A DNA stretch of 64,000 bases from Candidatus Falkowbacteria bacterium. GTDB taxonomy: Bacteria; Patescibacteriota; Patescibacteriia; UBA11705; JABHMO01. The DNA is taken from assembly GCA_018674305.1 (NCBI GenBank), contig JABHAL010000010.1, forward strand, positions 25,708 to 89,707, given 5' to 3'. Within the stretch, counting starts at the first letter, position 1. Every line of letters starts with the position of its first letter. The notes under the pieces are model-generated. The model was not told the origin of the DNA. It did not search any database and saw only the letters and a list, made by a program, of their open reading frames with translations. The position numbers and the translations under genes were made by a program. Shown here one piece after another: positions 2,769 to 58,123 of the stretch.

Positions 2769-3422
2769 CTAATTGATTTGTTTTGTATTTTCTTTGAACC
2801 AGGACAGTGACACGTAATTTATGTCAGTTTTGCTATCTACGTTATGAGCAACACACAAGTCTCCAGATGAATCTATAAGAAAACCAGTAACTATCCAAGT
2901 GTCAACTTGAACAGCATCTTCGTATTGATATTTTTCACCAATCACAATACCATCAAATTCATTCTTTGCCAAGTAGTACTCTTTACTATTTTCATAAAAC
3001 GGAACATCCGATTCTTTTAATACAGCACCAGGAGAAGTTATTAATACAGACCCATTCTGTCCTGGAAATTTTATAGCGATCTCGTCACTCTCTAATCTAA
3101 GAATAGTGCACCGAATCCACTTTGTAGCATTCCTATAATAAACAATATCTTCAACTGTAATTTCTTCGTCAAACTTAAGATCTTCTATTTTCACCACCTT
3201 TGTCTCAATAAACTCAACAATCTCCTCTTTCTTGGCGATGTAATCGCGCATAACTTGAAGTGCTTCATTGTCACCGGCCTCAGCTTTCTCTTTCAGTTCA
3301 GCAAATCCAAGACCACCTGAGATTTCTTCCAACTCTGACATTAATTTATCAAAATGCACTTGCTGAACTTCGGTGAAGTTAGCTTTGAGGGATTTCTCGG
3401 TTAGTTGTTCTATGCTTTTCAT
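2769..3422 (-). CDS. Paralog-family protein P1: conserved ~75-aa N-terminal helical domain plus a unique C-terminal domain
   Basis: 217 aa. The N-terminus MKSIEQLTEKSLKANFTEVQQVHFDKLMSELEEISGGLGFAELKEKAEAGDNEALQVMRDYIAKKEEIVEFIETK is shared with six other ORFs in this window; the C-terminus is unrelated to theirs. Confidence 0.7.
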   Translation of the reverse strand: MKSIEQLTEKSLKANFTEVQQVHFDKLMSELEEISGGLGFAELKEKAEAGDNEALQVMRDYIAKKEEIVEFIETKVVKIEDLKFDEEITVEDIVYYRNATKWIRCTILRLESDEIAIKFPGQNGSVLITSPGAVLKESDVPFYENSKEYYLAKNEFDGIVIGEKYQYEDAVQVDTWIVTGFLIDSSGDLCVAHNVDSKTDINYVSLSWFKENTKQIN

Positions 3423-3468
3423 ATTTGATATTTTTTAGTAGGTATTGGTTATTGGGTATTAGAAATTT

Positions 3469-3569
3469 TACTCGTTACTGTTCTCGTCCCGCATAGCGGG
3501 ATCCCGTTTGCGGGAGATTTAACATACTTAGTATTGCTTCTCTGCGTAGCGGAGTCCGCTATGCGGACG
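3469..3569. repeat. REPIN-like composite palindromic repeat (copy 1)
   Basis: The arms cccgcATAgcggg and tcccgTTTGcggga, a central agcggAGTccgct, and overall left-arm/right-arm inverted complementarity (cgtcccgcatagcggga ... gtccgctatgcggacg). About 95% identical to the copy at 4281-4380. Confidence 0.7.
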
Positions 3570-3580
3570 TGATTCATAGA

Positions 3581-4222
3581 CTATTCTACTTTTTTAAATC
3601 TATTATTAAAAGATTGTACATCTTCATTAAAAATATCATTATTTACCTTTATTTCAAAATCAAATACCCACAAAACATGAGCTATTCCAGATTGAATAGT
3701 AAAACCAACAATTTTTACCGGCCGAGCCCTGTCTGACTTCTCTATAAAATTATCACCAATCGAGTGTTCGTATAAATCTCTACTAGCTAACAACTTTGCT
3801 TCTCCAAATTGAAGAGTTTTAACGCTACGACTTGATTCCTTTAGCACAAAGCCTATGGGAGTTGTATGTTTTCCTATTGTCTCAGATAAAAACTCAACAT
3901 TATTCCCATCAATGCTTTCAACTGTACCCTTTTCAAATGTTTTACGTCCATAGGATGGAAACATGTAAACAATATCACCAATTTTTATTTTTATTTTCTT
4001 TGTTTCAATAAACTCAACAATCTCCTCTTTCTTGGCGATATAATCGCGCATAACTTGAAGTGCTTCTTTGTCACCGGCTTCAGCTTTCTCTTTCAGTTCA
4101 GCAAATCCAAGCCCACCTGAGATTTCTTCCAACTCAGACATTAATTTATCAAAATGCGCTTGCTGAACTTCGGTGAAGTTAGCTTTGAGTGAATTTTCAG
4201 TTAGTTGTTCTATGCTTTTCAT
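3581..4222 (-). CDS. Paralog-family protein P2
   Basis: 213 aa. Same N-terminal domain (about 93-96% nucleotide identity to P1 over the first ~230 nt of the CDS) with a different C-terminus. Confidence 0.7.
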   Translation of the reverse strand: MKSIEQLTENSLKANFTEVQQAHFDKLMSELEEISGGLGFAELKEKAEAGDKEALQVMRDYIAKKEEIVEFIETKKIKIKIGDIVYMFPSYGRKTFEKGTVESIDGNNVEFLSETIGKHTTPIGFVLKESSRSVKTLQFGEAKLLASRDLYEHSIGDNFIEKSDRARPVKIVGFTIQSGIAHVLWVFDFEIKVNNDIFNEDVQSFNNRFKKVE

Positions 4223-4253
4223 GAGGATTAACTATTGGTTATTGTGTATTGGT

Positions 4254-4277
4254 TATTGGGTATTGGGTATTGGGTAT
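4254..4277. repeat. Tandem heptamer repeat (TATTGGG)x3 on the plus strand, CCCAATA on the coding strand, immediately upstream of the P2 start
   Basis: tattgggtattgggtattgggtatttt. Related degenerate copies occur at 3441-3463, 56563-56590 and 57358-57393, each just upstream of a minus-strand start codon. Confidence 0.6.
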
Positions 4278-4280
4278 TTT

Positions 4281-4380
4281 ATTCGTTATTGTTCTCGTCC
4301 CGCATAGCGGGATCCCGTTTGCGGGAGATTTAACATACTTAGTATTGCTTCTCCGCGTAGCGGAGTCCGCTGTGCGGACA
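4281..4380. repeat. REPIN-like composite palindromic repeat (copy 2)
   Basis: Near-identical to 3469-3569, including the same small hairpins. Confidence 0.7.
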
Positions 4381-4390
4381 AATTTCATAA

Positions 4391-5155
4391 TTATTCATTG
4401 TCTTTTTCTAATACTTCAAAATATTCTGCAACCTTGTCAGTGTTTACCATAATCATCTTTGCAAATGGAAGGCCTTGACCAACGTTAAACATAATTTTTA
4501 CCAATATTTCAAAACCACTCTTTTGTATTTGATCTCCTCGCGGAACTGCAAATCTTTCTATTTCAACATCTTTCACGTCAATGGCCTCAATATGCCAAGG
4601 TAACTCTGGGCAGAACTCTTTAGCCATCGATTGATCAAGAAACTTTAATTTTTGCCCGACCCACAATCCATAATATTTATTTCTTTCAAACACCTCTACA
4701 AAACCTACATTTTCTACATTTATCTCATTTCCTGAAGTTTTAAAAAGCTGATCTTTGTTAACAGGGAGACTAAATCCTTCTTTCTCACCTTCCAATTTAA
4801 TATGAATTATATCAACGACGTCTGAATCTTTCCGAATGATTTCACATTTTTGCCAGACACTGTCCCTATAAATCTGGGCCTGGTCACCAGGGTGTAATTC
4901 AACTTCTTCAAATTTTCCACCCGGAAATTCCTTCTTCTCAATAAACTCAACTATCTGCTCTTTCTTGGCGATGTAATCACGCATTACTTGTAGTGCTTCT
5001 CGATCACCGTCCTCAGCTTTTTCTTTCAGTTCAGCAAAACCAAGTCCACCTGAAACTTGTTCTAACTCAGACATTAATTTATCAAAACGCGCTTGCTGAA
5101 CTTCGTCGAAGTTAGCTTTCAAAGATTTTGATTGTAGTTCAGAGTCGAAATTCAT
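4391..5155 (-). CDS. Paralog-family protein P3
   Basis: 254 aa. The N-terminus MNFDSELQSKSLKANFDEVQQARFDKLMSELEQVSGGLGFAELKEKAEDGDREALQVMRDYIAKKEQIVEFIEKK matches the family; the C-terminus is unique. Confidence 0.7.
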   Translation of the reverse strand: MNFDSELQSKSLKANFDEVQQARFDKLMSELEQVSGGLGFAELKEKAEDGDREALQVMRDYIAKKEQIVEFIEKKEFPGGKFEEVELHPGDQAQIYRDSVWQKCEIIRKDSDVVDIIHIKLEGEKEGFSLPVNKDQLFKTSGNEINVENVGFVEVFERNKYYGLWVGQKLKFLDQSMAKEFCPELPWHIEAIDVKDVEIERFAVPRGDQIQKSGFEILVKIMFNVGQGLPFAKMIMVNTDKVAEYFEVLEKDNE

Positions 5156-5161
5156 AATAAA

Positions 5162-5899
5162 TTATTTTTTTATAGCTTTTTTCAGTTTCTCAATATCATA
5201 AGAGCAAGCAAAACTCAGTGATCCTCCAGTAACAGTATTGAAATCAAAATGAACGAGAGCTAAAAGCTTATCTGGCAGACTACTATTAAAAAAAACTCTT
5301 AAAATTTTTGCGGTTTTAAGTTCATGCTTCTCAAAATCCTTCCTTACACCCTTATCCAAAACGCCCTGAATATCAAAATCATTAGGATCTATCTGGTATT
5401 TTTGAAGTAATTTTAATCCGAAAATCGACTTCACATCAAAATTATAAACAATATCGCCAACTGACATTTCTTCAGTTTTTTGAACTTTTATCAAGTCTTT
5501 TTTTAAAATCCACGGCTCCGCTACCCCGTTAACCCCTGTTCTTATTTTAATCAAATTACCGTTAGCTTCAATATCAATAACTGGACAAATCTTACCATGA
5601 TGACCAGCCCCTGGTTTCCAAAACATAACTTTGTCAAGCACTTCAATATCACATTCCCATGTTATTGGCACCTCCTTATTTTCAATAAACTCAACAACCT
5701 CCTCTTTCTTGACGATATAATTGCGCATAACTTGCAAGGCATCTTTATCACCGCCCTCAGCTTTCTCTTTCAGTTCAGCAAAACCAAGTCCACCTGAAAC
5801 TTGTTCTAACTCAGACATTAGTTTATCAAAATGTCGCTGTTGGCGTTCATCAAAGTTTGCTTTGAGAGATTTCTCTTGTAATTGTTCTAGAGTTTTCAT
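5162..5899 (-). CDS. Paralog-family protein P4
   Basis: 245 aa. Family N-terminus with a unique C-terminus. It lies 6 bp upstream of P3. Confidence 0.7.
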   Translation of the reverse strand: MKTLEQLQEKSLKANFDERQQRHFDKLMSELEQVSGGLGFAELKEKAEGGDKDALQVMRNYIVKKEEVVEFIENKEVPITWECDIEVLDKVMFWKPGAGHHGKICPVIDIEANGNLIKIRTGVNGVAEPWILKKDLIKVQKTEEMSVGDIVYNFDVKSIFGLKLLQKYQIDPNDFDIQGVLDKGVRKDFEKHELKTAKILRVFFNSSLPDKLLALVHFDFNTVTGGSLSFACSYDIEKLKKAIKK

Positions 5900-5995
5900 A
5901 TTTTAAGTATTCCCACAACCTGAAACTGGGGGAAATGTATTTTGTAGTTGTTACATGTTACATGATTTATGATACATGATTTCCACTTATTTTTC

Positions 5996-6026
5996 AACAA
6001 AAAAATCCTTACTTTGAGTAAGGACT
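5996..6026 (-). terminator. Rho-independent terminator for the 6032-6649 gene
   Basis: Stem tccttac/gtaagga (6006-6024) followed by a U-run on the minus strand (A-run 5997-6005 on plus). Confidence 0.6.
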
Positions 6027-10898: not shown

Positions 10899-12788
10899 AT
10901 GAAAGTATACTCAGGCTCAAAATATCCTAAACATAAAAGTTACTACAAAAAACCCTTTCTAAAAACAAGAGGCTTTTATTTTTTATTAATAGTAATTATC
11001 GCCGTAAGTAGTTTTATATACTTTTCTATCAAAAACACTTCCCCGGAAGATATTAACGACCAAAAATTTTCTGATCAAAATAATTTGCCTATCAACTCCG
11101 CAAAAGTACTGCTTGCTGACGGCAGCCTCGAAATCAAAGCCCCAAATGAAAACTGGCAAGCCATAGGTCCAGATTTTCAAATTGAAAGCCAAAGCTATAT
11201 CAAAACCGGCTCAGACTCAAAAGCGATCATTGAATTACCTGATAAAAGCTTAATTCGCATGAAGGCCGACACTCAAATCAAACTTGAAGAAATCGGGATG
11301 GCCGATATTATTATTGAGCAACTAAACGGAACCGCCTTTCATCGAGTTAATGATAGTTCCACTGCAATCTACCGCGTCAAAAACGGTTCATCTGAGCTGA
11401 CTGCCCTCGGAACAGCCTTTAATGTTTTTACAACTAGTCAATTAACTAAAGTCACTGTAACGGAAAGCAGAGTCAAGGCTAAAATATATGACAAAGATGA
11501 AAATATTATTAACATGAGAACAATTGATAGTGGCACCACGGCAACAATTAATCCTGATTTAGCTTTAGAAAAAATGATAGAAACTGAAGATGTTTCCAGC
11601 AATGACCTGATTGACGACAATTGGTACGCCTGGAACCTGGAACAAGACCAAAATTATAAATTTTTTACTGGCATCTTTGAACAAACTATAAAATTAGTTA
11701 TAACGAAACCTGAAAAAGCGGAAATGACCGTTGATAATGAGAAAATCACCATCGCTGGTGAAACAGAGCCTGGCGCTGACATCTTTATGTCTGGAAAAGA
11801 ACTGGATAACAACGATGGGCACTTTGAAACTGAATATTTATTAGGTTCAGGTGAAAACGAAATTGAAATTGTTGTCCAAAAAGGCAAAAACAAAAACAAG
11901 AGATTACTTTTAATAACCTCTACGAAAGAAAAATCTATTCTAACATTATCTGGCAAAACTGAAGATAACGCAGTTACTTTATCCTGGGAATCTGAGAACC
12001 TTGATGACTTCACAGATTTCATTGTCCTAAAAGGTGGGACCGAAGATCCAACATATCCAGATGCACCATATCATTCAGTCAAATCAACTCTTTTTTCAGA
12101 CACTTGGTCAAACTTAAGTGATGGTCACTATTTCTTCCGTATTTGTACCTTAAACAGTGAAAATGAGTGCTCTAATTATACAGATAATTATGAAACTTCT
12201 GTTGGTGAAAACAATGTTACCGAGGGGTCAATTGCTTTAGTTGCCACAAAAGAAGACGAAAATATAACGCTAAGTTGGAATTTAAGTAATGACTTGAACC
12301 CAACAGATGGGTTTAAAACCATTATCTCTCAAACTGAAGATCCTGTTTATCCAGGTAATTCCTATCATTCATTAAATAGTAATGAACGTAATGACACTTG
12401 GAAAAAACTTACTCCTGCAACATATTATTTTCGAGTTTGCCTACTCAAAGACAATGTCTGTATTTTGTACAGCAATAATGTAGCTATTGAACTCGAAGAA
12501 TTACAACAAACTGGTAAATTAACTTTAATTGGTGCACAAAATGGAAATAAAATCGACCTAGCCTGGGAAAACTCAGACACTCCAGTTACCAAAGGATTTA
12601 AAGTAATCATGGGTGAAAGTCCTGGAATCACTTTTCCAAGCAAAGACCACCATCTAATAACTTCCAATACCGCAACTAATGACTCCTGGGCAAACCTAGA
12701 AACAGGAAAAACTTACTACTTTCGTATTTGTCAAAACTTAGGTAGTAGTTGTGGCGTTTATAGTAATGAAGTAAAAATCAATTTTTAA
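10899..12788 (+). CDS. Membrane-anchored surface protein with four tandem ~100-aa fibronectin-III-like repeats
   Basis: 629 aa with an N-terminal transmembrane segment (FYFLLIVIIAVSSFIYF). Repeat ends recur: YFFRICTLNSENECSNYT, YYFRVCLLKDNVCILYSNNV and YYFRICQNLGSSCGVYSNEV. Confidence 0.65.
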   Translation: MKVYSGSKYPKHKSYYKKPFLKTRGFYFLLIVIIAVSSFIYFSIKNTSPEDINDQKFSDQNNLPINSAKVLLADGSLEIKAPNENWQAIGPDFQIESQSYIKTGSDSKAIIELPDKSLIRMKADTQIKLEEIGMADIIIEQLNGTAFHRVNDSSTAIYRVKNGSSELTALGTAFNVFTTSQLTKVTVTESRVKAKIYDKDENIINMRTIDSGTTATINPDLALEKMIETEDVSSNDLIDDNWYAWNLEQDQNYKFFTGIFEQTIKLVITKPEKAEMTVDNEKITIAGETEPGADIFMSGKELDNNDGHFETEYLLGSGENEIEIVVQKGKNKNKRLLLITSTKEKSILTLSGKTEDNAVTLSWESENLDDFTDFIVLKGGTEDPTYPDAPYHSVKSTLFSDTWSNLSDGHYFFRICTLNSENECSNYTDNYETSVGENNVTEGSIALVATKEDENITLSWNLSNDLNPTDGFKTIISQTEDPVYPGNSYHSLNSNERNDTWKKLTPATYYFRVCLLKDNVCILYSNNVAIELEELQQTGKLTLIGAQNGNKIDLAWENSDTPVTKGFKVIMGESPGITFPSKDHHLITSNTATNDSWANLETGKTYYFRICQNLGSSCGVYSNEVKINF

Positions 12789-12792
12789 AAAT

Positions 12793-12915
12793 AACCAATT
12801 GACCAATTAACCAAACTCTAAACAAATACGAATATTCAAAATACAAATTATTTTAAATTTAAAGCTTTTGAGTTTTGAATTTTAATTAGGATTTGATAAA
12901 TTGATTAATTGATAA
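12793..12915. repeat. Intergenic repeat family, copy A (CAATTGAYCAATT-ended element)
   Basis: 5' end aaccaattgaccaatt...ccaaactctaaacaaatacgaat, 3' end ttaggatttgataaattgattaattg. It aligns with copies at 15745-15900, 30512-30628 and 53443-53568. Confidence 0.65.
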
Positions 12916-12925
12916 TTAACTTAGT

Positions 12926-15647: not shown

Positions 15648-15744
15648 TAGCCAGATTAACTGCAAGCTAATTTTACACAAAATACTTATCCAGAGTCTAT
15701 TCACTTGTGCTTATTACAATACTCTAATAAGATGTAGATAGATA

Positions 15745-15900
15745 ATGATCAATTGACCAATTTGCCAAATCCTAAACAATGTCAAAACTCAAAATGATAA
15801 AATACGAATTTCACTTTTGAATTTGTATTTCTATATTCCTCAACCGACCAACAATTCAACAGTAATTTAGATTTTGATCAATTGATTAATTATAATTTTC
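15745..15900. repeat. Intergenic repeat family, copy B
   Basis: gatcaattgaccaatttgccaaatcctaaacaa...aaatacgaattt...ttttgaattt...ttagattttgatcaattgattaatt, immediately upstream of dnaB. Confidence 0.65.
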
Positions 15901-15907
15901 AATAAAT

Positions 15908-23691: not shown

Positions 23692-23920
23692 ATATTATAC
23701 CATAAACTGCAATTAACACACAATAAGTAATGCACACACCCTCATATAAACTATTACTAAAGCTCAATCATCCCACCCTCCCTCCCCACTGGAGGCGCCT
23801 GCGGCGGGCCTGGTTCGTCGTCACTATGTTGTTCCTCCTCACCTTTTTCTTCACAGTAATCTAAAGTCTTGTGATCTTGTACACATTGGCCATTAGGCCA
23901 ACAGATCTGTATATCATGTA

Positions 23921-23959
23921 ACAAAAAAAGAGGACTAATTCGCATTGCGAATTAGTCCC
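23921..23959 (-). terminator. Strong rho-independent terminator on the minus strand
   Basis: Perfect 12-bp stem ggactaattcgc/gcgaattagtcc with a 3-nt loop, followed on the minus strand by a 7-U run (plus A-run 23923-23929). Confidence 0.75.
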
Positions 23960-25233
23960 TTTACCATCGTTGAACATTGACTTGTGGGCCAACATCCTCG
24001 TACATTAAAGTTTGATTTTACCATTACAGTTTGTCTTTGAGACACGGTTTGTTCATTTGTGAAGTGCTAGTTTTGAAGCTTGGCTTAACCAATTCTTGAT
24101 TTTTGTTTTGTTCTGACCGAGGTCAGTTTCCAACTATTACAAGTTTGGCGACTTACCGTCCCGAAGGATGGCTAAAGATAGTTTATCACTCTATGATTGC
24201 TCATTGAGTTTCCGCTATCAAGTCTTACTTTTGCTTTTTCTTCTAGTTCTTCTGAACATTCCTTGTGTTCTGTTGTCTTGTCAACACTAGGCTGACATCG
24301 CGTGAAGGTTAATTGTCTGACCGAAGTCAGTGAGGAACATTTCGCTAGCCGAAGCTTTTGATTTGTTCTTACTTTTAACTTTCCAGAATACTTTGCTCTT
24401 TGGACATTAGCTGTTTCGTTTACTTGCTGGATTTTTGTTTTCTTCCTTTCGGAGGATCACTTTGTCCACTGGGGTAAACTACTAGTTCGTTTTCTCTGTC
24501 GTTCTGTAGTCTTGCTAAAGCAGTTTTACCAAGGAGTTTTTCGTTTTTACACAAAATACTTCTTGATTTTTTTGCTTTGATGCAAGTTGCTTGCGTTGAA
24601 GATTGGCTCTTGATCTAGTCTTGGCTAGCTTTTTTCTTCTGTTACCGAAGTAACGTCAGAATCCGGTTAACTTTGATTTTGATCCGTCATAGCTTATCTT
24701 CTGCATGCCCACTGATCGATTTTGATTGCGAATTAGCGACGTTTAACTTACTTGCCTCGAAAGGTTTTCTGTCTTTGTCTACTGCTAATTTACTGTTTAG
24801 CTCCATTTATAATAGTAGTCGTTGGTTTTTCCGAAGAAAATCCTGACTGCTAAATAGAGGCCAAATCTGTCATTGCCTTTTCTGAGTGGGTTGGTTACCA
24901 CTACAGTAAAAGCTCGAGATCTGTGGTGCATGTTAGTGTCAAGGCGCTTTTCACGGCTGTGCCCTTAAGTCAGTTGTCCAAGTTAATTTGGAGTATTGCT
25001 ACTCTTTGGTTAACTTTTTCTCCTGTCTCAGGACTCCACCTCAGAACTTGCATTCTTTGGTTTCCCTTGTCTTTACTTGCTCAATTACTTGTAATGAACT
25101 TTGTTGATGGTAATTCACATTATACTCGTATATCAAAACCTGTCAAGTGCCTAACTGTGGATAACTTTTAACTCTATTTTTTGTTTAATTTTAGAGGAAA
25201 ACTTTACCCCATTGACAAAATTATATATTATTG
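23960..25233 (-). ncRNA. Candidate large (~1.3 kb) structured ncRNA on the minus strand
   Basis: Only one short track ORF (24923-25171). The plus strand is T/G-rich and A-poor, so the minus-strand RNA is A/C-rich. At least five ccgaag sites on plus correspond to C(UUCG)G on minus, each flanked by complementary stems (for example gttac-CGAA-gtaac at 24640 and ctgac-CGAA-gtcag at 24318). It ends at the 23921-23959 terminator. Confidence 0.45.
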
Positions 25234-25240
25234 TTAATCT

Positions 25241-25270
25241 TTTATATCTGCTATAAATTTATAATAGCAA
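25241..25270 (-). promoter_or_regulatory. Possible promoter on the minus strand (TTGCTA-18-TATAAA) for the large ncRNA candidate
   Basis: Reverse complement of 25241-25270: ttgcta, an 18-nt spacer, then tataaa. Moderate match to consensus. Confidence 0.3.
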
Positions 25271-25304
25271 GTGTTTATTAACAATTGACCACTAGAAGGA
25301 GGGA

Positions 25305-27923: not shown

Positions 27924-27961
27924 ATAAAAAAACAGAGCCTGGTTAGAGAACCAAGGCTCTG
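27924..27961 (-). terminator. Rho-independent terminator after lipoprotein 1
   Basis: cagagcctgg...ccaaggctctg hairpin followed on the minus strand by a U-run (plus aaaaaaa 27924-27932). Confidence 0.7.
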
Positions 27962-27972
27962 TTGTGTTATTA

Positions 27973-28515
27973 CTATTTATCTTCGATAACACGTACCATT
28001 GCCGGCGGAGTGGCCAGCTGAAGTGGCTGATCGCACAGCATGTACGTCCCGCTCCACTCTAGGTAAACATCATCCGTAGTAAAGAAGAAAACCGCGTCAC
28101 CATTGGTTCCGTACGAACCATCGAGCTGCGGGCTTTCCACAACCTTACCACCAACACGTCTACGTGCAAAAGGATCATCGACAATCTGTTCACCAGTAGT
28201 TAACTTGGAGTTAACACTGGAGACCTTACCCTTGATAGTATGAAAGGCCATCACCTTACCATAGCTAACCAGGTAAATGTAGCTGATCTTGTTCGGATCA
28301 TTGAAACGGTTAAGCCGCTTTGACAGGTTATCTCGCTCCAAAGAACTCTCGATCTTGGGCGGCGGCGTGGCCTTGATCAGACGACCCTGCTGCTCTTCCG
28401 TGAAATTGGCCTCTGCCTTCTGGGTCTCACCCTGGCCCTCGTAGGACTCATCATCACAACCAACAAAGGCAGTGAACGCGAAAACACACGCAATTGCCAG
28501 CATAATTTTCTTCAT
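27973..28515 (-). CDS. Lipoprotein paralog 1 (unknown family)
   Basis: 180 aa with signal and lipobox AFTAFVGC. Conserved core LIKATPPPKIESSLER...ISYIYLVSYGKVMAFHTIKGKV...VESPQLDGSYG...PLQLATPP. Local GC is about 50-55%. Confidence 0.7.
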   Translation of the reverse strand: MKKIMLAIACVFAFTAFVGCDDESYEGQGETQKAEANFTEEQQGRLIKATPPPKIESSLERDNLSKRLNRFNDPNKISYIYLVSYGKVMAFHTIKGKVSSVNSKLTTGEQIVDDPFARRRVGGKVVESPQLDGSYGTNGDAVFFFTTDDVYLEWSGTYMLCDQPLQLATPPAMVRVIEDK

Positions 28516-29102
28516 TTCGACACCTCCTCGTCGCTCGTATCAGTCTTGGGATTATCCTCAATAATGCGAACCATCTCCGGAGGAGTAGACAGCTGAAGTG
28601 GTTGGTCGCTCAGCATGTATGCACCGTTCCACTCCAAGTAAATATCGTCCGTGGTGAAGAAGAAAACCGCATCGCCATTAGTTCCATATGAACCATCGAG
28701 CTGCGGGCTTTCTACTACCTTACCAGACCTGCCCTCATGATGAGCAAAAGGATCCTTCACGATCTGCTCACCAGTAGTCAACTTTGAATTAACACTAGAA
28801 ACCTTTCCCTTGATTGCATGAAAGGCCATGACCTTACCAAAATCGACCAAGTAGATATAACTGATCTTGTTGGGATCATTGAAACGAACAAGACGCTTGG
28901 CCAAATTCTCACGCTCCAAAGAGCTCTCGATCTTGGGCGGTGGGGTGGACTTGATCAGACGACCCTGCTGCGCTTCCGTGATCTTAGCTTCTTCCTTCTG
29001 GGTCTCACCCTGGCCCTCATAAGTTTGCTTTTCCGTCTTGCAGCCAACAAAGGCAAACGCCAGAATCAAGCTAAACAAAACCAACGTCTTTCCAGTCCTC
29101 AT
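28512..29102 (-). CDS. Lipoprotein paralog 2
   Basis: 196 aa with lipobox AFAFVGC and ribosome-binding site GAGGAGG. It is about 70% identical to paralog 1, and its stop overlaps the paralog 1 start (ATGA). Confidence 0.7.
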   Translation of the reverse strand: MRTGKTLVLFSLILAFAFVGCKTEKQTYEGQGETQKEEAKITEAQQGRLIKSTPPPKIESSLERENLAKRLVRFNDPNKISYIYLVDFGKVMAFHAIKGKVSSVNSKLTTGEQIVKDPFAHHEGRSGKVVESPQLDGSYGTNGDAVFFFTTDDIYLEWNGAYMLSDQPLQLSTPPEMVRIIEDNPKTDTSDEEVSK

Positions 29103-29226
29103 CGCAACCTCCTCAAGGTTATTAAGATGAATACACTAACAGATAGTGTAAACATCCTATAATATCACATATGAAATACTTTGTCAATAGCGACTGTAAT
29201 TTTACCACAAAGTCGCCCCTTTGAGA

Positions 29227-29263
29227 TAAAAAAACAGAGCCTGGTTAGAGAACCAAGGCTCTG
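29227..29263 (-). terminator. Rho-independent terminator after lipoprotein 3 (duplicate of the 27924-27961 module)
   Basis: Same hairpin and A-run. About 60 bp including the gene 3' end is duplicated (aaaaaacagagcctggttagagaaccaaggctctgtYgtgttattactaYttgtcttcgat). Confidence 0.7.
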
Positions 29264-29274
29264 TCGTGTTATTA

Positions 29275-29817
29275 CTACTTGTCTTCGATCATCCGGACCA
29301 TGGCCGGTGGCGTAGACAGTTGCAGTGGCTCAGTAAGCCACATGTAATCACCTCGCCACTGGACCAATACTTCTTCTGTAGTCCAGAAGAAGATCGCGTC
29401 TTCACTCGGACCATAGGATCCGTCCAATCCAGGACTTTCCATCGTATGTCGAGTTCGTCCAGCGCCAGTTGATCCATCGCCGACCTCGACAACCTGATCA
29501 CGCGTAGTCAACTTAGACGAACAATAAGTAACCTTGCCCTTCACCGTATGAAAGGCCATCACCTTGCCATAACTGATCAAGTAAATATAAGAGATTCGAT
29601 CTTCACGATTGATCTCCTTGAGATACTTCACCAGATTCTCCCGCTCTAGAGAATTTTTCATCTCCGGCGGAGGAGTCGACTTGAGTAACCGTTCCTGGTT
29701 CCTCTCTGTCATTTCCATCTCATCGATGGTAGTCTGGCCAGTATCCAGCGCCTTACCGCAACTGATCATACCCATAGCCAGAACACAGAGAGTAACAATC
29801 GTCATAAGCTTCTTCAT
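29275..29817 (-). CDS. Lipoprotein paralog 3 (diverged)
   Basis: 180 aa with lipobox GMISCG. It is about 45% identical to paralogs 1 and 2 and conserves the TPPPEM, ISYIYLISYGKVMAFHTVKGKV and PLQLSTPPAMVRMIEDK blocks. Confidence 0.7.
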   Translation of the reverse strand: MKKLMTIVTLCVLAMGMISCGKALDTGQTTIDEMEMTERNQERLLKSTPPPEMKNSLERENLVKYLKEINREDRISYIYLISYGKVMAFHTVKGKVTYCSSKLTTRDQVVEVGDGSTGAGRTRHTMESPGLDGSYGPSEDAIFFWTTEEVLVQWRGDYMWLTEPLQLSTPPAMVRMIEDK

Positions 29818-29826
29818 GTCAATCTC

Positions 29827-30342
29827 CTACTGGCCGGGGATAGTGAAATCTGCCGGATGCGTCGCCGGAAGATCATCAGTTTTGAACAGCTCACGGTTGG
29901 CCATTTCAGTTCGCGCATTGTACTTGGCCACCACGTCTCGCCGTTGATTCTGCAGACCCAGCACGATCGTGTTGAGTCGAGAATACTCGGTCTTGTCCTC
30001 GAACGTCCAATCCTTGCGCGGACCAGCGTCTTCCTTGAAGCGCTTGAGCGCCGCGTCAGAATTGACGATCTTGGACTCCAGCGACAGGATATCCTGATTC
30101 GTCTGCTTGAACCACTCGTAGTTCTGGATCACGTTGTCCGCGTCCAGAGTCTTCTCCATGATCTTCACAGCCTGCTCGCCGGGATAACACACCACCCGGA
30201 CAACCGTCCCGATGAGTCCCAACACAATCACAACTGCGAGGATCTTGAAGAACATACTCCAAGGTCCACCTTTGGCCAGGTTGTAGGCCGTGTTTTCGTA
30301 CTTTCGCCCAACATCATCCCATCGATCATCATTCCGTGTCAT
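29827..30342 (-). CDS. LemA-like membrane protein (low-confidence family assignment)
   Basis: Ribosome-binding site AAGGAGGTG before the internal ATG (MTRNDDR). One transmembrane helix (FFKILAVVIVLGLIGTVV) then a helical region with YNARTEMANRELFK, loosely LemA-like. The track ORF extends to 30369. Confidence 0.45.
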   Translation of the reverse strand: MTRNDDRWDDVGRKYENTAYNLAKGGPWSMFFKILAVVIVLGLIGTVVRVVCYPGEQAVKIMEKTLDADNVIQNYEWFKQTNQDILSLESKIVNSDAALKRFKEDAGPRKDWTFEDKTEYSRLNTIVLGLQNQRRDVVAKYNARTEMANRELFKTDDLPATHPADFTIPGQ

Positions 30343-30473
30343 CTCCACCTCCTTAAGGTTTAGACACAAAAATACTTCTATTCAGCAACACAGTTTTCAT
30401 AAGAGTATAGCATAAAGATTAAATACTGTCAACCCTATTACCTAAATTTACAACAGAAATACTATTTGAAACA

Positions 30474-30497
30474 AAAAACAGGCAAATAACGCCTGCT
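30474..30497 (-). terminator. Rho-independent terminator after the helicase gene
   Basis: caggc-aaataac-gcctg followed on the minus strand by a U-run (plus aaaaaa 30474-30479). Confidence 0.5.
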
Positions 30498-30511
30498 TAA
30501 TAACAAAGAAA

Positions 30512-30628
30512 CAATTAACCAAATCCTAAATAAACACAAAATATCAATGCTTAAAATATAAAAATAACTTTTGAATTTAAATATTATAATTTGTTTAGAA
30601 TTTAGAGTTTGATTCATTGATCAATTTG
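30512..30628. repeat. Intergenic repeat family, copy C (5'-truncated)
   Basis: acaattaaccaaatcctaaataaac...cttttgaattt...ttagagtttgattcattgatcaattt. Confidence 0.6.
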
Positions 30629-32593
30629 TCAATCTACATAAATAACATCTTCGCCCTCATCATTAAACCCATACGGCTGATGTCCTTGCTTCATATACTT
30701 TGATTCATCTAACTCACGGATGAACATAGACGGTTTGGAAAATACCTCACCGAACTTGTAACTAAACGAACGAACCGGGAACAACATATTCAATTCATCC
30801 TTGGCTCTCGTGGCCGCCACGTAAAACAAACGTCGTTCTTCCTCCAACTCGCGCGGATTGTCAATAGATTTATGGTGAGGAAAATGACCATCGCGTAATC
30901 CGATTATAAAAACTACTGCCCACTCCAAGCCTTTGGCTTGATGAATTGTGGACAAAATCACTGCGTTCTTGTCATGTTCATGCTCATCAGCAAACGACTC
31001 ACTAAGCATCACGTCAGTTAAAAGTTTATCCAAATCATTATACATTGCCACAAAGTTAACCAATTGACCTAAGTCATCCAGGCGGTCACGATAATTCTCA
31101 TAAGCATTTTTCAAATACTCTTCATAACCATGCGCTAAAACATATTCCACTGCCTCGGCAATATAACCTTTTTGATTTTTATCTAAATCTTTCAGAAAAC
31201 TAAAAGTTGAAGAAATCCTTCCCCAGCTAATTGCAGCTTTACCCGTTAACTTTAAATTTCCATCGATTAATTCGCTCAGCTCACCGAATTCCTGAATTTT
31301 TTTCCAAATAACTTCAGCTCTTTTCATTCCAATGCCTTCATACATTAATAAAATTCGTTTCCAGGAGACCTCATCCTGATAGTTAGTTAAAACTTTTAAA
31401 TAGGCCACAACGTCTTTGACGTGAGCTTGCTCAAAATAGCGCATACCACCGCGTACAACGTAAGGAATATTTTGTTTTGATAGTTCCAGTTGAATTTCCG
31501 CTGATTGAAAAGTTGCGCGATACAAAACTGCCATTGATTCATAATTAACACCATCACGATACAGTTGCATTATTCTTTTGATAATCAAACTAGCCTGTTG
31601 TTGCTGATCACGTGCGGCAATCAAAGTTGGTAAAATATTATCTCCTCGGTTTGGTTTTAATGCTTTTTGAAATTGATCCACGTTATGCTCAATACTATTA
31701 TTTGCTAAATCTAATATTTGAGGAGTACTACGATAATTAGTTTCAATTTTGTAAATTTTGGTTTTTGCAAACAGTTTAGGAAAATTTAATATGTTCTTTA
31801 CATCAGCAGCGCGAAATGAATAAATACTTTGTGAATCATCACCAACTACCAGTACATTATTATGAAATGACGACAAATGTCGAATAATTTCCGCTTGGAT
31901 GTAATTTGTATCTTGATATTCGTCAACCAAAATGTATTCAAACTGCTTGGCAAATCTTTCTTTGATATCTGGGAATTGCTCTAACAGTCTCAACCAATTC
32001 ACTAAAAGGTCATCAAAGTCCATCACGTTGGCAACTTTTTTCTTTTTATTATAAATAAAAGCAATCTCTTCACATTTTTCCGCAATAAAATCAGGGTAAG
32101 AATAATACACTTCAACCACCTCACGAATATCTTGATTGGTGTTTCGGGAATAACTAATCATACCTTGAACAATACTGGCCTTAGGAAAATTCTGCCCTTT
32201 AACATTCAACGCCAATTCTTCCATCGCGGCCTTAACCAAACTGATTGAATCAGCTTGATCTAAAATATTGAAGTTTCGATTATAATCTAGCTTGTCAGCG
32301 TATTTACGAAGAACTCTATTGGCAATACGATGAAATGTACCGCCCCACAAATGATCAGGGTTAAATCCTAACAAATTTTCTACTCTGGCTAACATTTCAT
32401 TGGCCGCTCTATTGGTAAACGTAACCAACAATATACTTTCAGGTTTTATCCCACATTCTACTAAATAAGCCACACGAAAAACTAAAGTGCGTGTTTTTCC
32501 TGACCCGGCGCCCGCCAAAACCAAACAAGGGCCGTCCGATTCGGTAACGACTTGATATTGTTCTTTATTTAGTAGTTTTTTATACTCAATCAT
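30629..32593 (-). CDS. UvrD/PcrA/Rep-family ATP-dependent DNA helicase
   Basis: 654 aa. Motif I is LVLAGAGSGKTRTLVFRVAYL, with DEYQDTN-like motif II and the rest of the helicase motifs. Confidence 0.88.
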   Translation of the reverse strand: MIEYKKLLNKEQYQVVTESDGPCLVLAGAGSGKTRTLVFRVAYLVECGIKPESILLVTFTNRAANEMLARVENLLGFNPDHLWGGTFHRIANRVLRKYADKLDYNRNFNILDQADSISLVKAAMEELALNVKGQNFPKASIVQGMISYSRNTNQDIREVVEVYYSYPDFIAEKCEEIAFIYNKKKKVANVMDFDDLLVNWLRLLEQFPDIKERFAKQFEYILVDEYQDTNYIQAEIIRHLSSFHNNVLVVGDDSQSIYSFRAADVKNILNFPKLFAKTKIYKIETNYRSTPQILDLANNSIEHNVDQFQKALKPNRGDNILPTLIAARDQQQQASLIIKRIMQLYRDGVNYESMAVLYRATFQSAEIQLELSKQNIPYVVRGGMRYFEQAHVKDVVAYLKVLTNYQDEVSWKRILLMYEGIGMKRAEVIWKKIQEFGELSELIDGNLKLTGKAAISWGRISSTFSFLKDLDKNQKGYIAEAVEYVLAHGYEEYLKNAYENYRDRLDDLGQLVNFVAMYNDLDKLLTDVMLSESFADEHEHDKNAVILSTIHQAKGLEWAVVFIIGLRDGHFPHHKSIDNPRELEEERRLFYVAATRAKDELNMLFPVRSFSYKFGEVFSKPSMFIRELDESKYMKQGHQPYGFNDEGEDVIYVD

Positions 32594-32598
32594 TTGGA

Positions 32599-33174
32599 TT
32601 ACGAGATTACAAGATTATTCCTGTCACGTTGCCATTTTTGGGGATTGCAACGAATATACCAACGAACTTGCTCTAATTCCTCCTGACTTCGAATTATCCG
32701 ATCGTAAAATCTCCCCTGCCAAAACCTTTCACCAACTGTCCCCCTTATTTTATTAATTTGTTTAGCTGACTGCATTTTAAATCGTCCAATCATTTTGGGC
32801 AATAACATATGGCGACGAATCATTCGACGACACGTTGTGTCGTCTGCATACATTCGTAGAGACAATTCATGAATTGTCTCTACATCACGGTCGTCGCCAT
32901 TAACAATTCTAATTATCCCATGAAAATGATTGGGCATAATTATATATTTATCTATTTCACATTGTGGATAATGCCGAAACGCATCTTGCCAACATTGCTC
33001 AACAATTTCACCAAAGTCATTTAGAAACATCTTTTCATTCCTAACTTTCCCTAGCCACTCAATCATATAAGATGTACACATCGTAACATAATAGAATCCA
33101 TCAGACGAATAATTCCAATACGGCAAACGTGTTGATTTAATTCTATACCTGTTTTTATATAATTCCTCACTCAT
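32599..33174 (-). CDS. IS200-like / REP-associated tyrosine (Y1, HUH) transposase
   Basis: 191 aa. HUH motif PNHFHGIIRI and a C-terminal tyrosine region RFWQGRFYDRII...YIRCNPQKW. It ends 5 bp upstream of the helicase start. Confidence 0.7.
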   Translation of the reverse strand: MSEELYKNRYRIKSTRLPYWNYSSDGFYYVTMCTSYMIEWLGKVRNEKMFLNDFGEIVEQCWQDAFRHYPQCEIDKYIIMPNHFHGIIRIVNGDDRDVETIHELSLRMYADDTTCRRMIRRHMLLPKMIGRFKMQSAKQINKIRGTVGERFWQGRFYDRIIRSQEELEQVRWYIRCNPQKWQRDRNNLVIS

Positions 33175-41376: not shown

Positions 41377-41456
41377 TAGTTACCTCATTTTTAATGGACA
41401 CTTCATTATAATTGAACTCCCAAAGTTTGTCAATGTAGAGACATTTTCACAATAGT

Positions 41457-41527
41457 CATTCCGGACTTGATCCGGAATCCCAGGTCTCCTTATAAAGATT
41501 TTTAAGACTCCGGATCAAGTCCGGAGT
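41457..41527. repeat. REPIN-like pair of inverted REP hairpins
   Basis: H1 cattccggacttgatccggaatc, and H2 ctccggatcaagtccggag whose core is the reverse complement of H1. The H1 25-mer recurs identically at 59525-59549 inside murI. Confidence 0.7.
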
Positions 41528-41599
41528 GACGCTTTGGGGTATATTAGATAAAACAAACAAAAACACCAACTCGAGTTGGCTTTAAATATGAGGATTCTA

Positions 41600-53417: not shown

Positions 53418-53442
53418 AAAATAAAATATTAATTATTAATTA

Positions 53443-53568
53443 CCAATTGATCAATCACCTAAAATCTAAATAAACCTAAATGAACAAATTCGAAAATAAT
53501 TTCAAACCTTTGGAAATTTTTATTTTAAATTTATCTGGGACTTAGAGTTTTGATCCATTGATTAATTT
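53443..53568. repeat. Intergenic repeat family, copy D
   Basis: taccaattgatcaatcacctaaaatctaaataaacc...ttagagttttgatccattgattaattt. Confidence 0.6.
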
Positions 53569-53605
53569 CATTAGCTTTATTATAACAAATTTTACCCATT
53601 TTGGC

Positions 53606-54415: not shown

Positions 54416-54502
54416 ATATAAAAATTAAAAATAGAAAGCTTAAAGCACTTACTTTCAACTTTCAACATTTAACTTTTAACTGCCATTATTATACCACATT
54501 AT

Positions 54503-56482: not shown

Positions 56483-56588
56483 AATTCATAATAAAACTTG
56501 TTTATTGTTTATTGTTTATGATTTAATTTTTATTAATTTATATTTATTGTTTATTTTATTGGGTATTTGGTATTTGTCACTGGTTATT

Positions 56589-57311
56589 CTAACTAATTTT
56601 ATCAAACCCTATCTTAAACGCGCTCAATGATAAACCAGCTACCTTACGCTTCCCAGATACATCAACAGCACTATGATATTCAAATAATACACATAACTTT
56701 TTGGGGTCTTCAGATAAATCCGTAAAAAAACCTATTACACGAGTTTTGTAATCACTATTTGATGACCTGGACTTAAATTCATCACCAACTTTATATCCTT
56801 TATATTCGTGTAGTTCTAATAAAACCTCCTTAATTTGACCAACATTTTCAGTGTTTTCATATTTGGATTCAACTGGTCCGGCAATTTTAATTAAACTAGC
56901 CATTTCAAAAGTATGCCATGAATTAAAAACATCTAGAAAAACCTTAGCAAGTAGTTTAACAGGTTCCACCGTCTCGATTCGTCCAGGTTGAAAATCTCCT
57001 TCTGGGGTCATAACGACTACCCGATCACCCTCCTTCATTTCTGTAATCTCCACAAATTCATTTTCTGGCGATATCTTCATCTCCTTGGTTTCAATAAACT
57101 CAACTATTTCCTCTTTTTTTGTAATGTAATCGCGCATCACTTGAAGCGCCTCTTTACTTCCAGCTTCGGCCTTTTCTTTCAAGTCAGCAAATCCAAATCC
57201 ACCTGAAATTACTTCTAACTCAGACATTATTTTATCAAAATGCGCTTGCTGAACTTCGTTGAAGTTAGCATGCAAGGATTTTTCGGTTAAAGATTGTTCG
57301 GGATTTAACAT
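56589..57311 (-). CDS. Paralog-family protein P5
   Basis: Family N-terminus SLTEKSLHANFNEVQQAHFDKIMSELEVISGGFGFADLKEKAEAGSKEALQVMRDYITKKEEIVEFIETKEMK. A start at M11 (MLNPEQ) is preferred by homology with P7; the track start is 57341. Confidence 0.65.
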   Translation of the reverse strand: MLNPEQSLTEKSLHANFNEVQQAHFDKIMSELEVISGGFGFADLKEKAEAGSKEALQVMRDYITKKEEIVEFIETKEMKISPENEFVEITEMKEGDRVVVMTPEGDFQPGRIETVEPVKLLAKVFLDVFNSWHTFEMASLIKIAGPVESKYENTENVGQIKEVLLELHEYKGYKVGDEFKSRSSNSDYKTRVIGFFTDLSEDPKKLCVLFEYHSAVDVSGKRKVAGLSLSAFKIGFDKIS

Positions 57312-57391
57312 AATTTTCAGTAAACGGTAAACGTTAAACAATAAACCTTTAATTACTTATTGGATATTAGGTATTGGGCATTTGATATTGG

Positions 57392-58117
57392 TTACTCCTT
57401 GGCGTTAGTATTTATTTTCTTGAAATTTCTAGAAAAATCAGCTATATACCAATGACCGACCTTCCTTTTTCCAGCCTTATCTAAATCATAATCTATAAAC
57501 TCACCTAAAATTTTTAACTTTCCGTGAACAAGCACAAATCCTATCAAACGATTTTTCCAGTTTTGGACCTTTGATTTAAACTCGTCACCAACTTTATACT
57601 GCTCAAACTCATGAAGCTCTAATAAAAGTTCTTTGTCATCAACCTCTTCCTCACCAACAACTGTGTATTTTTCACCAACTGGTCCGGCGATTTTAGCTAA
57701 CCTTGTTATCATATATCCACGAGTAACATCTTCCTCATCCATTTTAACGTTTACGCCCAGAAAAGCATCCGGACTTGAGCAGATTGTCCCTATTTGAAAT
57801 TGTCTTGCTCCATCTAAAATTAACACGCTGTCACCATTTTTAAGTTCTGTTATCTCCACAAATTCATTTTCTGGCGATATATTCATTTCCTTTGTTTCAA
57901 TAAACTCCACAATTTCTTCTTTCTTCGCGATGTAATCTCGCATCACCTGAAGAGCTTCCTTACTTCCAGCCTCAGCTTTTGCTTTTAGCTCAGCAAAGCC
58001 TAACCCACCTGAGATCACTTCTAACTCAGACATTAGTTTATCAAAATGAGCTTGCTGACTTTCATCAAAGTTTGCATGCAAAGATTTTTCGATTAAAGAT
58101 TGTTCTAGCTTAAACAT
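57392..58117 (-). CDS. Paralog-family protein P6
   Basis: 241 aa with the family N-terminus. Its C-terminus shares LAKIAGPVGEKY and LLELHEFEQYKVGDEFKSK with P5 and P7. Confidence 0.7.
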   Translation of the reverse strand: MFKLEQSLIEKSLHANFDESQQAHFDKLMSELEVISGGLGFAELKAKAEAGSKEALQVMRDYIAKKEEIVEFIETKEMNISPENEFVEITELKNGDSVLILDGARQFQIGTICSSPDAFLGVNVKMDEEDVTRGYMITRLAKIAGPVGEKYTVVGEEEVDDKELLLELHEFEQYKVGDEFKSKVQNWKNRLIGFVLVHGKLKILGEFIDYDLDKAGKRKVGHWYIADFSRNFKKINTNAKE

Positions 58118-58123
58118 AGTTAA

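Follow-up and report, generated by a model that had tools for sequence, protein, structure and literature searches.

Two composite palindromes of a Candidatus Falkowbacteria genome originate from a local duplication or gene conversion, and the adjoining heptamer tracts belong to a genome-wide class of period-7 leaders

The window analysed here is a 64-kb stretch of DNA of a marine Candidatus Falkowbacteria bacterium, a representative of the Candidate Phyla Radiation (CPR; Patescibacteria), according to the names given to identical proteins. On its minus strand, a run of four paralogous genes (g1–g4) contains two spacers, each with a composite palindrome of about 100 nt and, directly before the next start codon, a tract of tandem heptamers (TATTGGG on the plus strand, CCCAATA on the gene strand). 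The palindromes had been proposed to belong to a dispersed family of REPINs (doublets of repetitive extragenic palindromic, REP, sequences), and the heptamers to be a substrate of phase variation. We found that the two palindrome copies come from a recent local duplication of about 380 nt, or a gene conversion of that length, between neighbouring paralogs and were not made by transposition. The heptamer tracts of the paralogs are one case of genome-wide period-7 leaders, which are present in about a third of the upstream spacers. The finding reveals neither a mobile REPIN population nor a contingency switch but a local duplication carrying a hairpin cluster. We regard it as moderately probable that this duplicated intercistronic cluster acts at the RNA level, next to heptamer leaders that are slippage-prone genome-wide.

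The duplicated or converted blocks A and B (Table 1) formed a single BLAST alignment of 382 nt with 91.4% identity. Within it, two direct repeats were contiguous: D1 (240 nt of coding sequence, 93% identity) and D2 (157 nt of spacer, 88% identity without gaps), with a spacing of 800/811 nt. The homology runs about 300 nt past the palindrome, through the leader and 75 codons of the following gene, and ends with the conserved N-domain. At the opposite side, it stops within 1–10 nt of the outer palindrome edge, beside the stop codon of the upstream gene. Between the N-domains of g1 and g2, identity at third codon positions was 0.90 vs. 0.55–0.79 for the other pairs among the seven paralogs of the window. 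The C-terminal halves of g1 and g2 are only distantly related. Since both palindromes sit inside one block of about 380 nt that includes coding sequence, the copies are the result of local duplication or conversion and not independent insertions. The palindrome core changed at 2 of 83 nt, compared to 6 of 62 third codon positions in the adjoining coding block; it appears at least as conserved as the coding sequence, which may be taken as weak evidence of constraint.

Both palindromes were present as originally described, that is, as near-identical GC-rich units of about 100 nt (the second at 4281-4380). Arm one, read on the plus strand, consists in both copies of the hairpin TCCCGC-ATA-GCGGGA followed by TCCCG-TTTG-CGGGA. 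After an A/T-rich centre of 24 nt between the two hairpin pairs, arm two consists of CTC(T/C)GC-GTA-GCGGAG and GTCCGC-T(A/G)T-GCGGAC (CTCTGC and TAT in copy 1). The hairpins located in copy 1 were cccgcATAgcggg (3488-3500), tcccgTTTGcggga (3502-3515), and agcggAGTccgct (3548-3560). Relative to copy 1, copy 2 has a T to C change in a loop and, in a stem, a change through which hairpin 2 becomes perfect. Each arm (in copy 1, 3486-3516 and 3540-3568) has two tandem hairpins, and the arms are inverted. Since the outer hairpins complement each other, the unit can alternatively pair over its full length as one long hairpin. Its alternative folds are four local hairpins or a 12-bp outer stem around three hairpins. 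Folding of either strand gave -37 to -43 kcal/mol, and none of 200 shuffles was as good (z -4.2 to -4.9 vs. dinucleotide shuffles of both strands). The two-arm inverted architecture claimed for the element, similar to REP doublets or bacterial interspersed mosaic elements (BIMEs), therefore holds. With at most one mismatch, CCGCATAGCGG was found six times in the window vs. 0.13 expected, and five of the six sites fall within the two palindromes. The GC content of the element is about 50% (36% for the genome).

Searching positions 3380-4440 against Rfam at E-values up to 10 yielded chance-level matches only, far under the gathering score. A relationship of the cloverleaf-like fold to tRNA was ruled out because ARAGORN found no tRNA or tmRNA; the whole window contained neither of these and no Rfam 15 family at the gathering score.

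Further copies were searched for in 177,634 nt of non-redundant sequence of the same genome, comprising the window, its flanks, and five other paralog loci obtained via exact-protein look-ups. The genome size is probably about 1 Mb, of which the element search covered about 178 kb. The window sequence recurs in more than 50 sample blocks at 99.8–100% identity. Within the 177,634 nt, blastn-short detected the element at its two window positions only, and its commonest 16-mer had two copies; the commonest 16-mers of the sample (14–16 copies) were paralog N-domain coding sequence. The suggested search for the palindrome elsewhere in the genome thus returned no further copy within this sample, and membership in a dispersed REPIN family was not borne out, as both copies lie in one duplicated block. 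At locus L037 (9125-9263), a double hairpin (TCCCGAT...ATCGGGA, then TCCCG...CGGGA) with the same centre as in the palindrome, GGGATCCCG, directly follows a stop codon; next come 7-nt repeats of the TAGTAAC type and then a paralog start. The order of stop codon, GC hairpins, heptamers, and start codon therefore recurs once independently.

Parts of the element were detected in other organisms. The 19-mer CCCGCATAGCGGGATCCCG matched 14 species genomes of a genome collection, mostly metagenome-assembled genomes (MAGs) of Patescibacteria and Omnitrophota; none of them holds the whole element, and none is the source genome. A metagenome scan with the same 19-mer gave three contigs of the same kind, the window locus being absent from that collection. 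The matches have in common only the tandem double hairpin TCCCGC-ATA-GCGGGA followed by TCCCG(C)-loop-(G)CGGGA, usually at gene ends. Judging by this shared motif, the palindrome may be an inverted doublet of a (TCCCGC-loop-GCGGGA)x2 module found in Patescibacteria and Omnitrophota MAGs, and either shared ancestry or convergence of terminator-like hairpins may explain its occurrence elsewhere. The viral-contig scan and the phage collection BLAST gave no matches to the element, and the plasmid collection gave one chance-level match of 37 nt. A protein database searched with the open frame through the element returned no candidates, i.e., no spurious open reading frames (ORFs) over other copies.

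In several genomes of the Saccharibacteria and Parcubacteria type, a double hairpin TTTTCCCGCATAGCGGGATCCCG-loop-CGGGAAAA is situated at the 3' end of the seryl-tRNA synthetase gene (serS), where it overlaps the final codons and the stop. Its position is conserved between orthologs (L002 6061-6090, L013 1770-1800, L022 6027-6056, and L024 7314-7343), and four of the 14 genome matches of the 19-mer fall at such orthologous serS 3' ends.

Heptamer tracts were found at the predicted places and far above chance. Tandem Repeats Finder reported 6.6 TATTGGG units at 4233-4278, among them the three perfect units (4254-4274) that had been described, and 2.9 units at 3441-3460 in the leader of g1, which contains no Shine-Dalgarno sequence. 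With at most two mismatches, the doubled heptamer occurs 13 times in the window vs. 0.42 expected, including 56557-56570 and 57358-57378; the related tracts extend over 56557-56576 and 57358-57391. The claim that such heptamers stand upstream of each paralog start is true for g1, g2, and the paralog at 56589-57311, but not for genes 4391-5155 and 57392-58117, with upstream spacers of just 6 nt without heptamers, nor for genes 5162-5899 and 58124-58843, with other repeat units in their spacers. The tract reported at 56563-56590 as preceding a paralog is real, but it follows a paralog and precedes a gene for an M50 peptidase. The sister leaders of g1 and g2 differ by 11 nt between flanks that are 91–97% identical; the tracts therefore change length over evolutionary time.

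Table 1. Positions of the palindromes, duplicated blocks, leaders, and associated genes in the window.
Feature	Position	Strand	Remarks
Composite palindrome, copy 1	3486-3568	.	Begins 12 nt past the stop codon of gene 3581-4222
Composite palindrome, copy 2	4297-4379	.	Begins 11 nt past the stop codon of gene 4391-5155
Duplicated/converted block, copy A	3198-3568	-	Palindrome, leader, and first ~75 codons of gene 2769-3422
Duplicated/converted block, copy B	3998-4379	-	Palindrome, leader, and first ~75 codons of gene 3581-4222
Heptamer leader of gene 2769-3422	3423-3485	-	Nine 7-nt units between palindrome and ATG
Heptamer leader of gene 3581-4222	4223-4296	-	Tandem Repeats Finder array at 4233-4291; 11 nt longer than the sister leader
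CCAATA-type degenerate heptamer leader of paralog 56589-57311	57312-57391	-	Without palindrome
Spacer full of ACCAAAT/ACCCAAT and AAACAAT heptamers	56483-56588	-	Downstream of a paralog, upstream of the M50 peptidase gene
Paralog g1, 217 aa	2769-3422	-	Helical N-domain and variable beta-rich C-terminal part; stop 1 nt before murC start
Paralog g2, 213 aa	3581-4222	-	AlphaFold model, pLDDT (predicted local distance difference test) 81
Paralog g3, 254 aa	4391-5155	-	Upstream only a 6-nt spacer, without palindrome or heptamers
Paralog g4, 245 aa	5162-5899	-	First gene of a likely operon; ATCATGT-type heptamers upstream
Sigma-70-like promoter match TTGAAA-17-TATCAT	5969-5997	-	Consensus match alone; after terminator-like hairpin 6004-6026
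Homologue of Y1 (HUH) transposases, similar to REP-associated tyrosine transposase	32599-33174	-	Pfam, NCBIfam, and PDB matches; 5 nt upstream of a UvrD-type helicase gene

The period of 7 nt is not restricted to the paralogs. Tandem arrays with a period of 6–10 nt occur at 1.71 per kb of intergenic vs. 0.30 per kb of coding sequence (5.8-fold), and the concatenated intergenic sequence holds 14 of them vs. 0.57 +/- 0.67 in dinucleotide shuffles. Autocorrelation was measured in the spacers before start codons, over at most 70 nt. These spacers gave a lag-7 match of 0.395, against an expectation of approximately 0.31 (z 10.9), and lag 14 showed an echo. The z value was 7.0 once the TATTGGG spacers had been removed, 11.3 in other loci of the same genome (L025, L029, L033, L035, and L037), and 5.0 in unrelated CPR/Omnitrophota loci (positive: L001, L002, L004, L005, and L024). 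The unrelated loci with arrays belong to Patescibacteria, including Saccharibacteria, and in one case to WOR-3; arrays were found in none of the Omnitrophota loci. No lag-7 signal was present in a 50-kb control from Escherichia coli (z -1.4). A lag-7 match of at least 0.45 was reached by 14 of the 42 upstream spacers vs. 3% of shuffles, and nearly every spacer has a unit of its own (AATTCAT, ACTTTCA, CTTGTCTCG, AAACAAT, ACGAATG, GTAACAC, and others). Arrays also occur upstream of housekeeping genes, and they tend to be missing where a gene has a canonical promoter (TTGACA/TATAAT) together with a GGAGG Shine-Dalgarno sequence. One array (54416-54502) is located downstream of an extended -10 element (TGGTATAAT) and therefore lies in the leader.

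Period-7 organisation of upstream DNA is apparently lineage-wide in these ultra-small bacteria, a group in which hardly any work has dealt with promoters, leaders, or mutation processes; our literature search on heptamer or tandem repeats in Patescibacteria or Falkowbacteria found nothing relevant. A joint reading, in which the period-7 arrays would be an undescribed lineage-wide feature of Patescibacteria and the tandem double hairpin a small mobile or functional RNA module, is doubtful and is put forward only tentatively.

The genes of the run are transcribed in the order g4, g3, palindrome 2 with heptamers, g2, palindrome 1 with heptamers, g1, murC, a 52-aa ORF, and murB. The promoter match upstream of g4 is the sole 10-of-12 match upstream of the paralog run on the minus strand. 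Near the two spacers, the gene strand has only two 9-of-12 matches (4419-4390 and 3657-3630), and the 23 promoter-like matches of the region are no excess over the 19.9 in shuffles. Intrinsic terminators (GC hairpin plus U-tract) were absent from 3423-3580 and 4223-4390 on either strand, while canonical ones are present elsewhere in the window. A canonical promoter or terminator inside the spacers was accordingly rejected, and as they contain no terminator-like site and promoter-like matches only at shuffle level, the palindromes are most simply intercistronic.

Of the two roles originally suggested for the palindromes, transcript boundaries and recombination sites, the former seems the most plausible from their position and folding. 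The palindrome would be transcribed within the g4-to-murC message, and the transcript would fold, 11–12 nt past the upstream stop codon, into four hairpins or into a 12-bp stem with three hairpins inside. Such a structure could act as a barrier to 3'-exonucleases, as a partial terminator, or as an RNase target and processing site. Neighbouring cistrons would thereby be uncoupled in stability or expression, as by intercistronic REP/BIME elements in enterobacterial operons. The heptamer tracts probably grow and decay through replication slippage and would serve as G-poor leaders devoid of a Shine-Dalgarno sequence, not as dedicated phase-variation switches.

Several points weigh against this account. 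The RNA-level role is deduced from position and folding, and two copies give no covariation. The sole stem difference between the copies gives a C.A mismatch when the gene strand is folded but a G.U wobble when the opposite strand is, which weakly favours the antisense strand or a role at the DNA level. The coincidence of the block boundary with the outer palindrome edge also fits a recombination role. An arm of up to 30 nt is near-identical in other Patescibacteria and Omnitrophota MAGs, for which convergence may perhaps be an insufficient explanation. Considering that the sample represents about 178 kb of a genome of probably about 1 Mb, a few more copies of the element could exist. Finally, consensus assemblies of a near-clonal population cannot show minority repeat-length alleles.

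Because the edge of the palindrome is also the end of the duplicated block, a recombination role is possible. The palindrome would then be a DNA-level hot spot of recombination or replication stalling, bounding conversion tracts and shuffling the constant N-module onto variable C-terminal cassettes. The homology block ends both near the outer palindrome edge and at the end of the N-domain, no other sequence of the sample has 16-mers repeated as often as those of this domain, and the assembly JABHIS010000004.1 breaks within a paralog N-domain. Nevertheless, at least 25 paralogs have the same mosaic structure and only two of them bear the palindrome; other paralog arrays (L033, L039, and others) are free of it. 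Neither core sites of the attC type nor an adjoining recombinase gene was found, and we consider such a hot spot unlikely.

It is improbable that the CCCAATA tract is a contingency locus in which strand slippage, by changing the number of units, would turn the following paralog on or off or adjust its expression, a mechanism exemplified by the hmw1A and hmw2A promoters of Haemophilus influenzae. Those promoters contain 13–38 heptamer units, and expression is known to be modulated by heptanucleotide repeats in promoters (PMC2651432). As in hmw1A/hmw2A, a 7-nt tandem repeat, a substrate for slipped-strand mispairing, stands directly upstream of the gene. The 11-nt difference between the sister leaders speaks for this possibility, as do the six perfect AATACTT units upstream of another paralog (L025 5179-5275). 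However, a contingency locus has a long perfect tract, typically of at least five units, and the tract at 4254-4274 has three, with degenerate flanking units. The three assemblies that cover the two spacers did not differ in either of them; these are the window itself, GCA_018670895.1, and GCA_018665965.1 (loci L015 and L041 vs. the window), the last of which showed one single-nucleotide polymorphism (SNP) and no gaps relative to the window over 8.8 kb. No indel was detected in any other heptamer spacer of the SNP-bearing assemblies (L019, L021, and L027 with 19, 13, and 12 SNPs, respectively), and the AATACTT tract had the same length in L025 and L026; the only indel found among assemblies was a frameshift of 2 nt in the gene of a Mur ligase. 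Because the assemblies come from a nearly clonal population (99.8–100% identity) and consensus sequences hide minority repeat-length alleles, this is a weak test of repeat-length change. In contrast to the hmw loci, the heptamers are not tied to surface proteins: the periodicity precedes a third of the genes, housekeeping genes included, and the paralog products have no signal peptide and look cytoplasmic. The prediction of a phase-variation substrate thus found no support in these data, and the suggested comparison of unit counts, made here between assemblies, showed no length change.

The palindrome might also have no function, being a chance-born or decayed cluster of GC hairpins that hitch-hiked on the gene duplication. 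Its confinement to one duplicated block, its absence from the other paralog arrays, and the lack of a match to a known RNA family are in line with this view. On the other hand, the core has changed less than the third codon positions beside it, the same stem is reused fourfold, and the double hairpin recurs at L037 and at gene ends elsewhere. On balance, a functionless hitch-hiker appears hardly probable.

The REP-associated tyrosine transposase (RAYT) predicted at 32599-33174 proved to be an HUH/Tyr RAYT-like protein. It passes the Pfam Y1_Tnp cut-off (28.4 bits vs. 23), but its best NCBIfam match, REP_Tyr_transpos, scores 56.4 bits, under the cut-off of 80. The HFH (HUH) motif and the WQGRFYD...WYIRCNP segment align to E. 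coli TnpA-REP (4ER8), which is also the best PDB match (E 0.035). The gene is single-copy and lies 29 kb from the palindromes, which do not flank it, and no CCGCATAGCGG-type motif occurs within 29 kb of it. It has no hairpin flanks; its only extragenic flank holds an ordinary terminator, and the 16-mers of the flank occur once in the sample. Abundance and a position beside the RAYT gene are the defining features of REPINs, and their 16-mers reach 57–140 occurrences for RAYT groups 2 and 3 (PMC5581495). It is thus very unlikely that the palindrome is a non-autonomous element of a dispersed family, similar to REPINs or miniature inverted-repeat transposable elements (MITEs) and mobilised by this protein: the inverted two-arm GC-hairpin architecture, the single-copy gene with its 4ER8 and REP_Tyr_transpos matches, the recurrence of one arm in other CPR and Omnitrophota genomes, and the GC content above that of the genome agree with it, while the two copies in 177.6 kb lie in one duplicated block reaching into coding sequence, the gene lacks flanks of this kind, has a helicase gene at a distance of 5 nt, and misses the NCBIfam cut-off, and other repeat families of the genome are more dispersed and better REP candidates.

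A perfect 28-nt palindrome (GTAGAGACAATTCA followed by TGAATTGTCTCTAC) is located inside the RAYT-like ORF at 32856-32883, between the HUH and Tyr motifs, where the protein carries an insertion relative to family profiles. Another REP-like GC hairpin, GTCAYTCCGGAYTTGATCCGGART, was present at at least five separate places. It forms REPIN-like inverted doublets at 41453-41545 and at L025 10290-10390, and occurs at L035 16245-16285 as well as inside coding sequence (59523-59560, within the Asp/Glu racemase ORF 58928-59821). This hairpin is a better candidate for the partner of the RAYT-like gene than the palindrome, although it likewise does not flank that gene.

The paralogs that carry the palindromes belong to a Falkowbacteria-restricted family with at least 25 members in the sample of about 178 kb and 52 database clusters. 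All share one design, a near-invariant helical N-domain of about 75 aa and a variable Tudor/KOW-like C-terminus. In the AlphaFold model of g2, a four-helix N-domain is followed by tandem Tudor/KOW-like barrels. The paralogs had no Pfam or NCBIfam match, and the fold search with the paralog model gave weak similarities to Tudor, KOW, and MBT-like folds (E above 0.001), so no function was assigned. Two look-ups of the g1 protein (2769-3422) returned no record. Members of the family are found in the window at 2769-5899 and 56589-58843 and at L025, L029, L033, L035, L037, and L039, often beside peptidoglycan genes (murC, murI, another Mur ligase, a penicillin-binding protein, and an alanine racemase). 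The locus illustrates how the members of a large paralog family specific to CPR keep their constant 5' module of spacer and N-domain homogenised while the C-termini diverge.

Several further families of repeats were found in the same window, along with what may be a large non-coding RNA. An A/T-rich element of about 130 nt with inverted ends (AATTGACCAATTAACCAAATCCTAAA ... TTTAGAGTTTGATCAATTGATTAATT) has four copies (12781-12925, 15740-15905, 30481-30630, and 53418-53569). They lie in unrelated spacers, usually abutting a start codon, and the element is more MITE-like and more dispersed than the palindrome; no further copies were found in the other approximately 110 kb sampled. The minus strand of 23692-25304 (1.6 kb) has no ORF above 82 aa and reads as a long RNA, rich in UUCG- and GAAA-capped hairpins (GUUACUUCGGUAAC, CUGACUUCGGUCAG, CUGACCUCGGUCAG, and CCUCCGAAAGGAAG), and ends near 23890-23925 in an intrinsic terminator of canonical form. 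With no Rfam match, this stretch is a candidate for a large, structured non-coding RNA. A terminator hairpin, AAAAAAACAGAGCCTGGTTAGAGAACCAAGGCTCTGT, is duplicated at 27930-27972 and 29232-29274, after two pairs of 180–196-aa ORFs. The hairpins and these ORFs (27973-30369) lie in the sole high-GC stretch of the window (48% vs. 36%) and may be a recently acquired or duplicated module.

Compared with known systems, the element is of an ordinary kind: a composite palindrome in extragenic DNA that was carried along by a duplication. Similarly to REP, BIME, and REPIN sequences (PMC3116915, PMC3337134, PMC5581495), it consists of short GC-rich imperfect extragenic palindromes inverted into a composite hairpin of about 100 nt, is located between cistrons of the same orientation, and occurs in a genome with a single-copy HUH/Tyr RAYT-like gene. 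It differs from REPINs in that only two copies, derived from block duplication, were present in the sample, without abundant 16-mers and without a copy flanking the RAYT-like gene. It also differs from the REP/BIME/REPIN sequences of Enterobacteria and Pseudomonas in its arms, each of which consists of two tandem hairpins sharing one stem sequence, and in its CPR host.

Integron attC sites and cassette arrays resemble the locus in having an imperfect palindrome of about 100 nt directly downstream of two small ORFs of the same strand. An attC site contains R'' and R' core sites 35–130 nt apart; this identity was rejected, as regular expressions found no R'' (RYYYAAC) and R' (GTTRRRY) pair in 3300-4500 on both strands. 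In addition, and unlike in cassettes, the similarity reaches into the next gene, no integrase is nearby, and most paralogs are without the element.

Correia elements and other Neisseria MITEs are intergenic sequences of about 100 nt with inverted ends, which are co-transcribed and able to form a long RNA hairpin. The palindrome shares with them its length, inverted ends, intergenic location, and possible long RNA hairpin. Unlike them, it shows no evidence of target-site duplication and no dispersed family in the sample, and its arms are nested small hairpins instead of simple terminal inverted repeats.

The closest parallel to the heptamers comes from heterocystous cyanobacteria, whose short tandemly repeated repetitive sequences (STRRs) are 7-bp tandem intergenic repeats of unexplained function (PMC2670836). 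In both cases, tandem 7-nt repeats of several unit types are spread over intergenic and promoter DNA genome-wide. The arrays of Falkowbacteria differ in occurring in Patescibacteria, in their A/T-rich units, nearly one per spacer, and in being short, degenerate, and abutting start codons. By analogy with STRRs, they might be leaders recognised by a protein or by the ribosome, or might tune expression through slippage. The heptamer tracts of the paralogs thus belong to an STRR-like genome-wide class in an unusual host.

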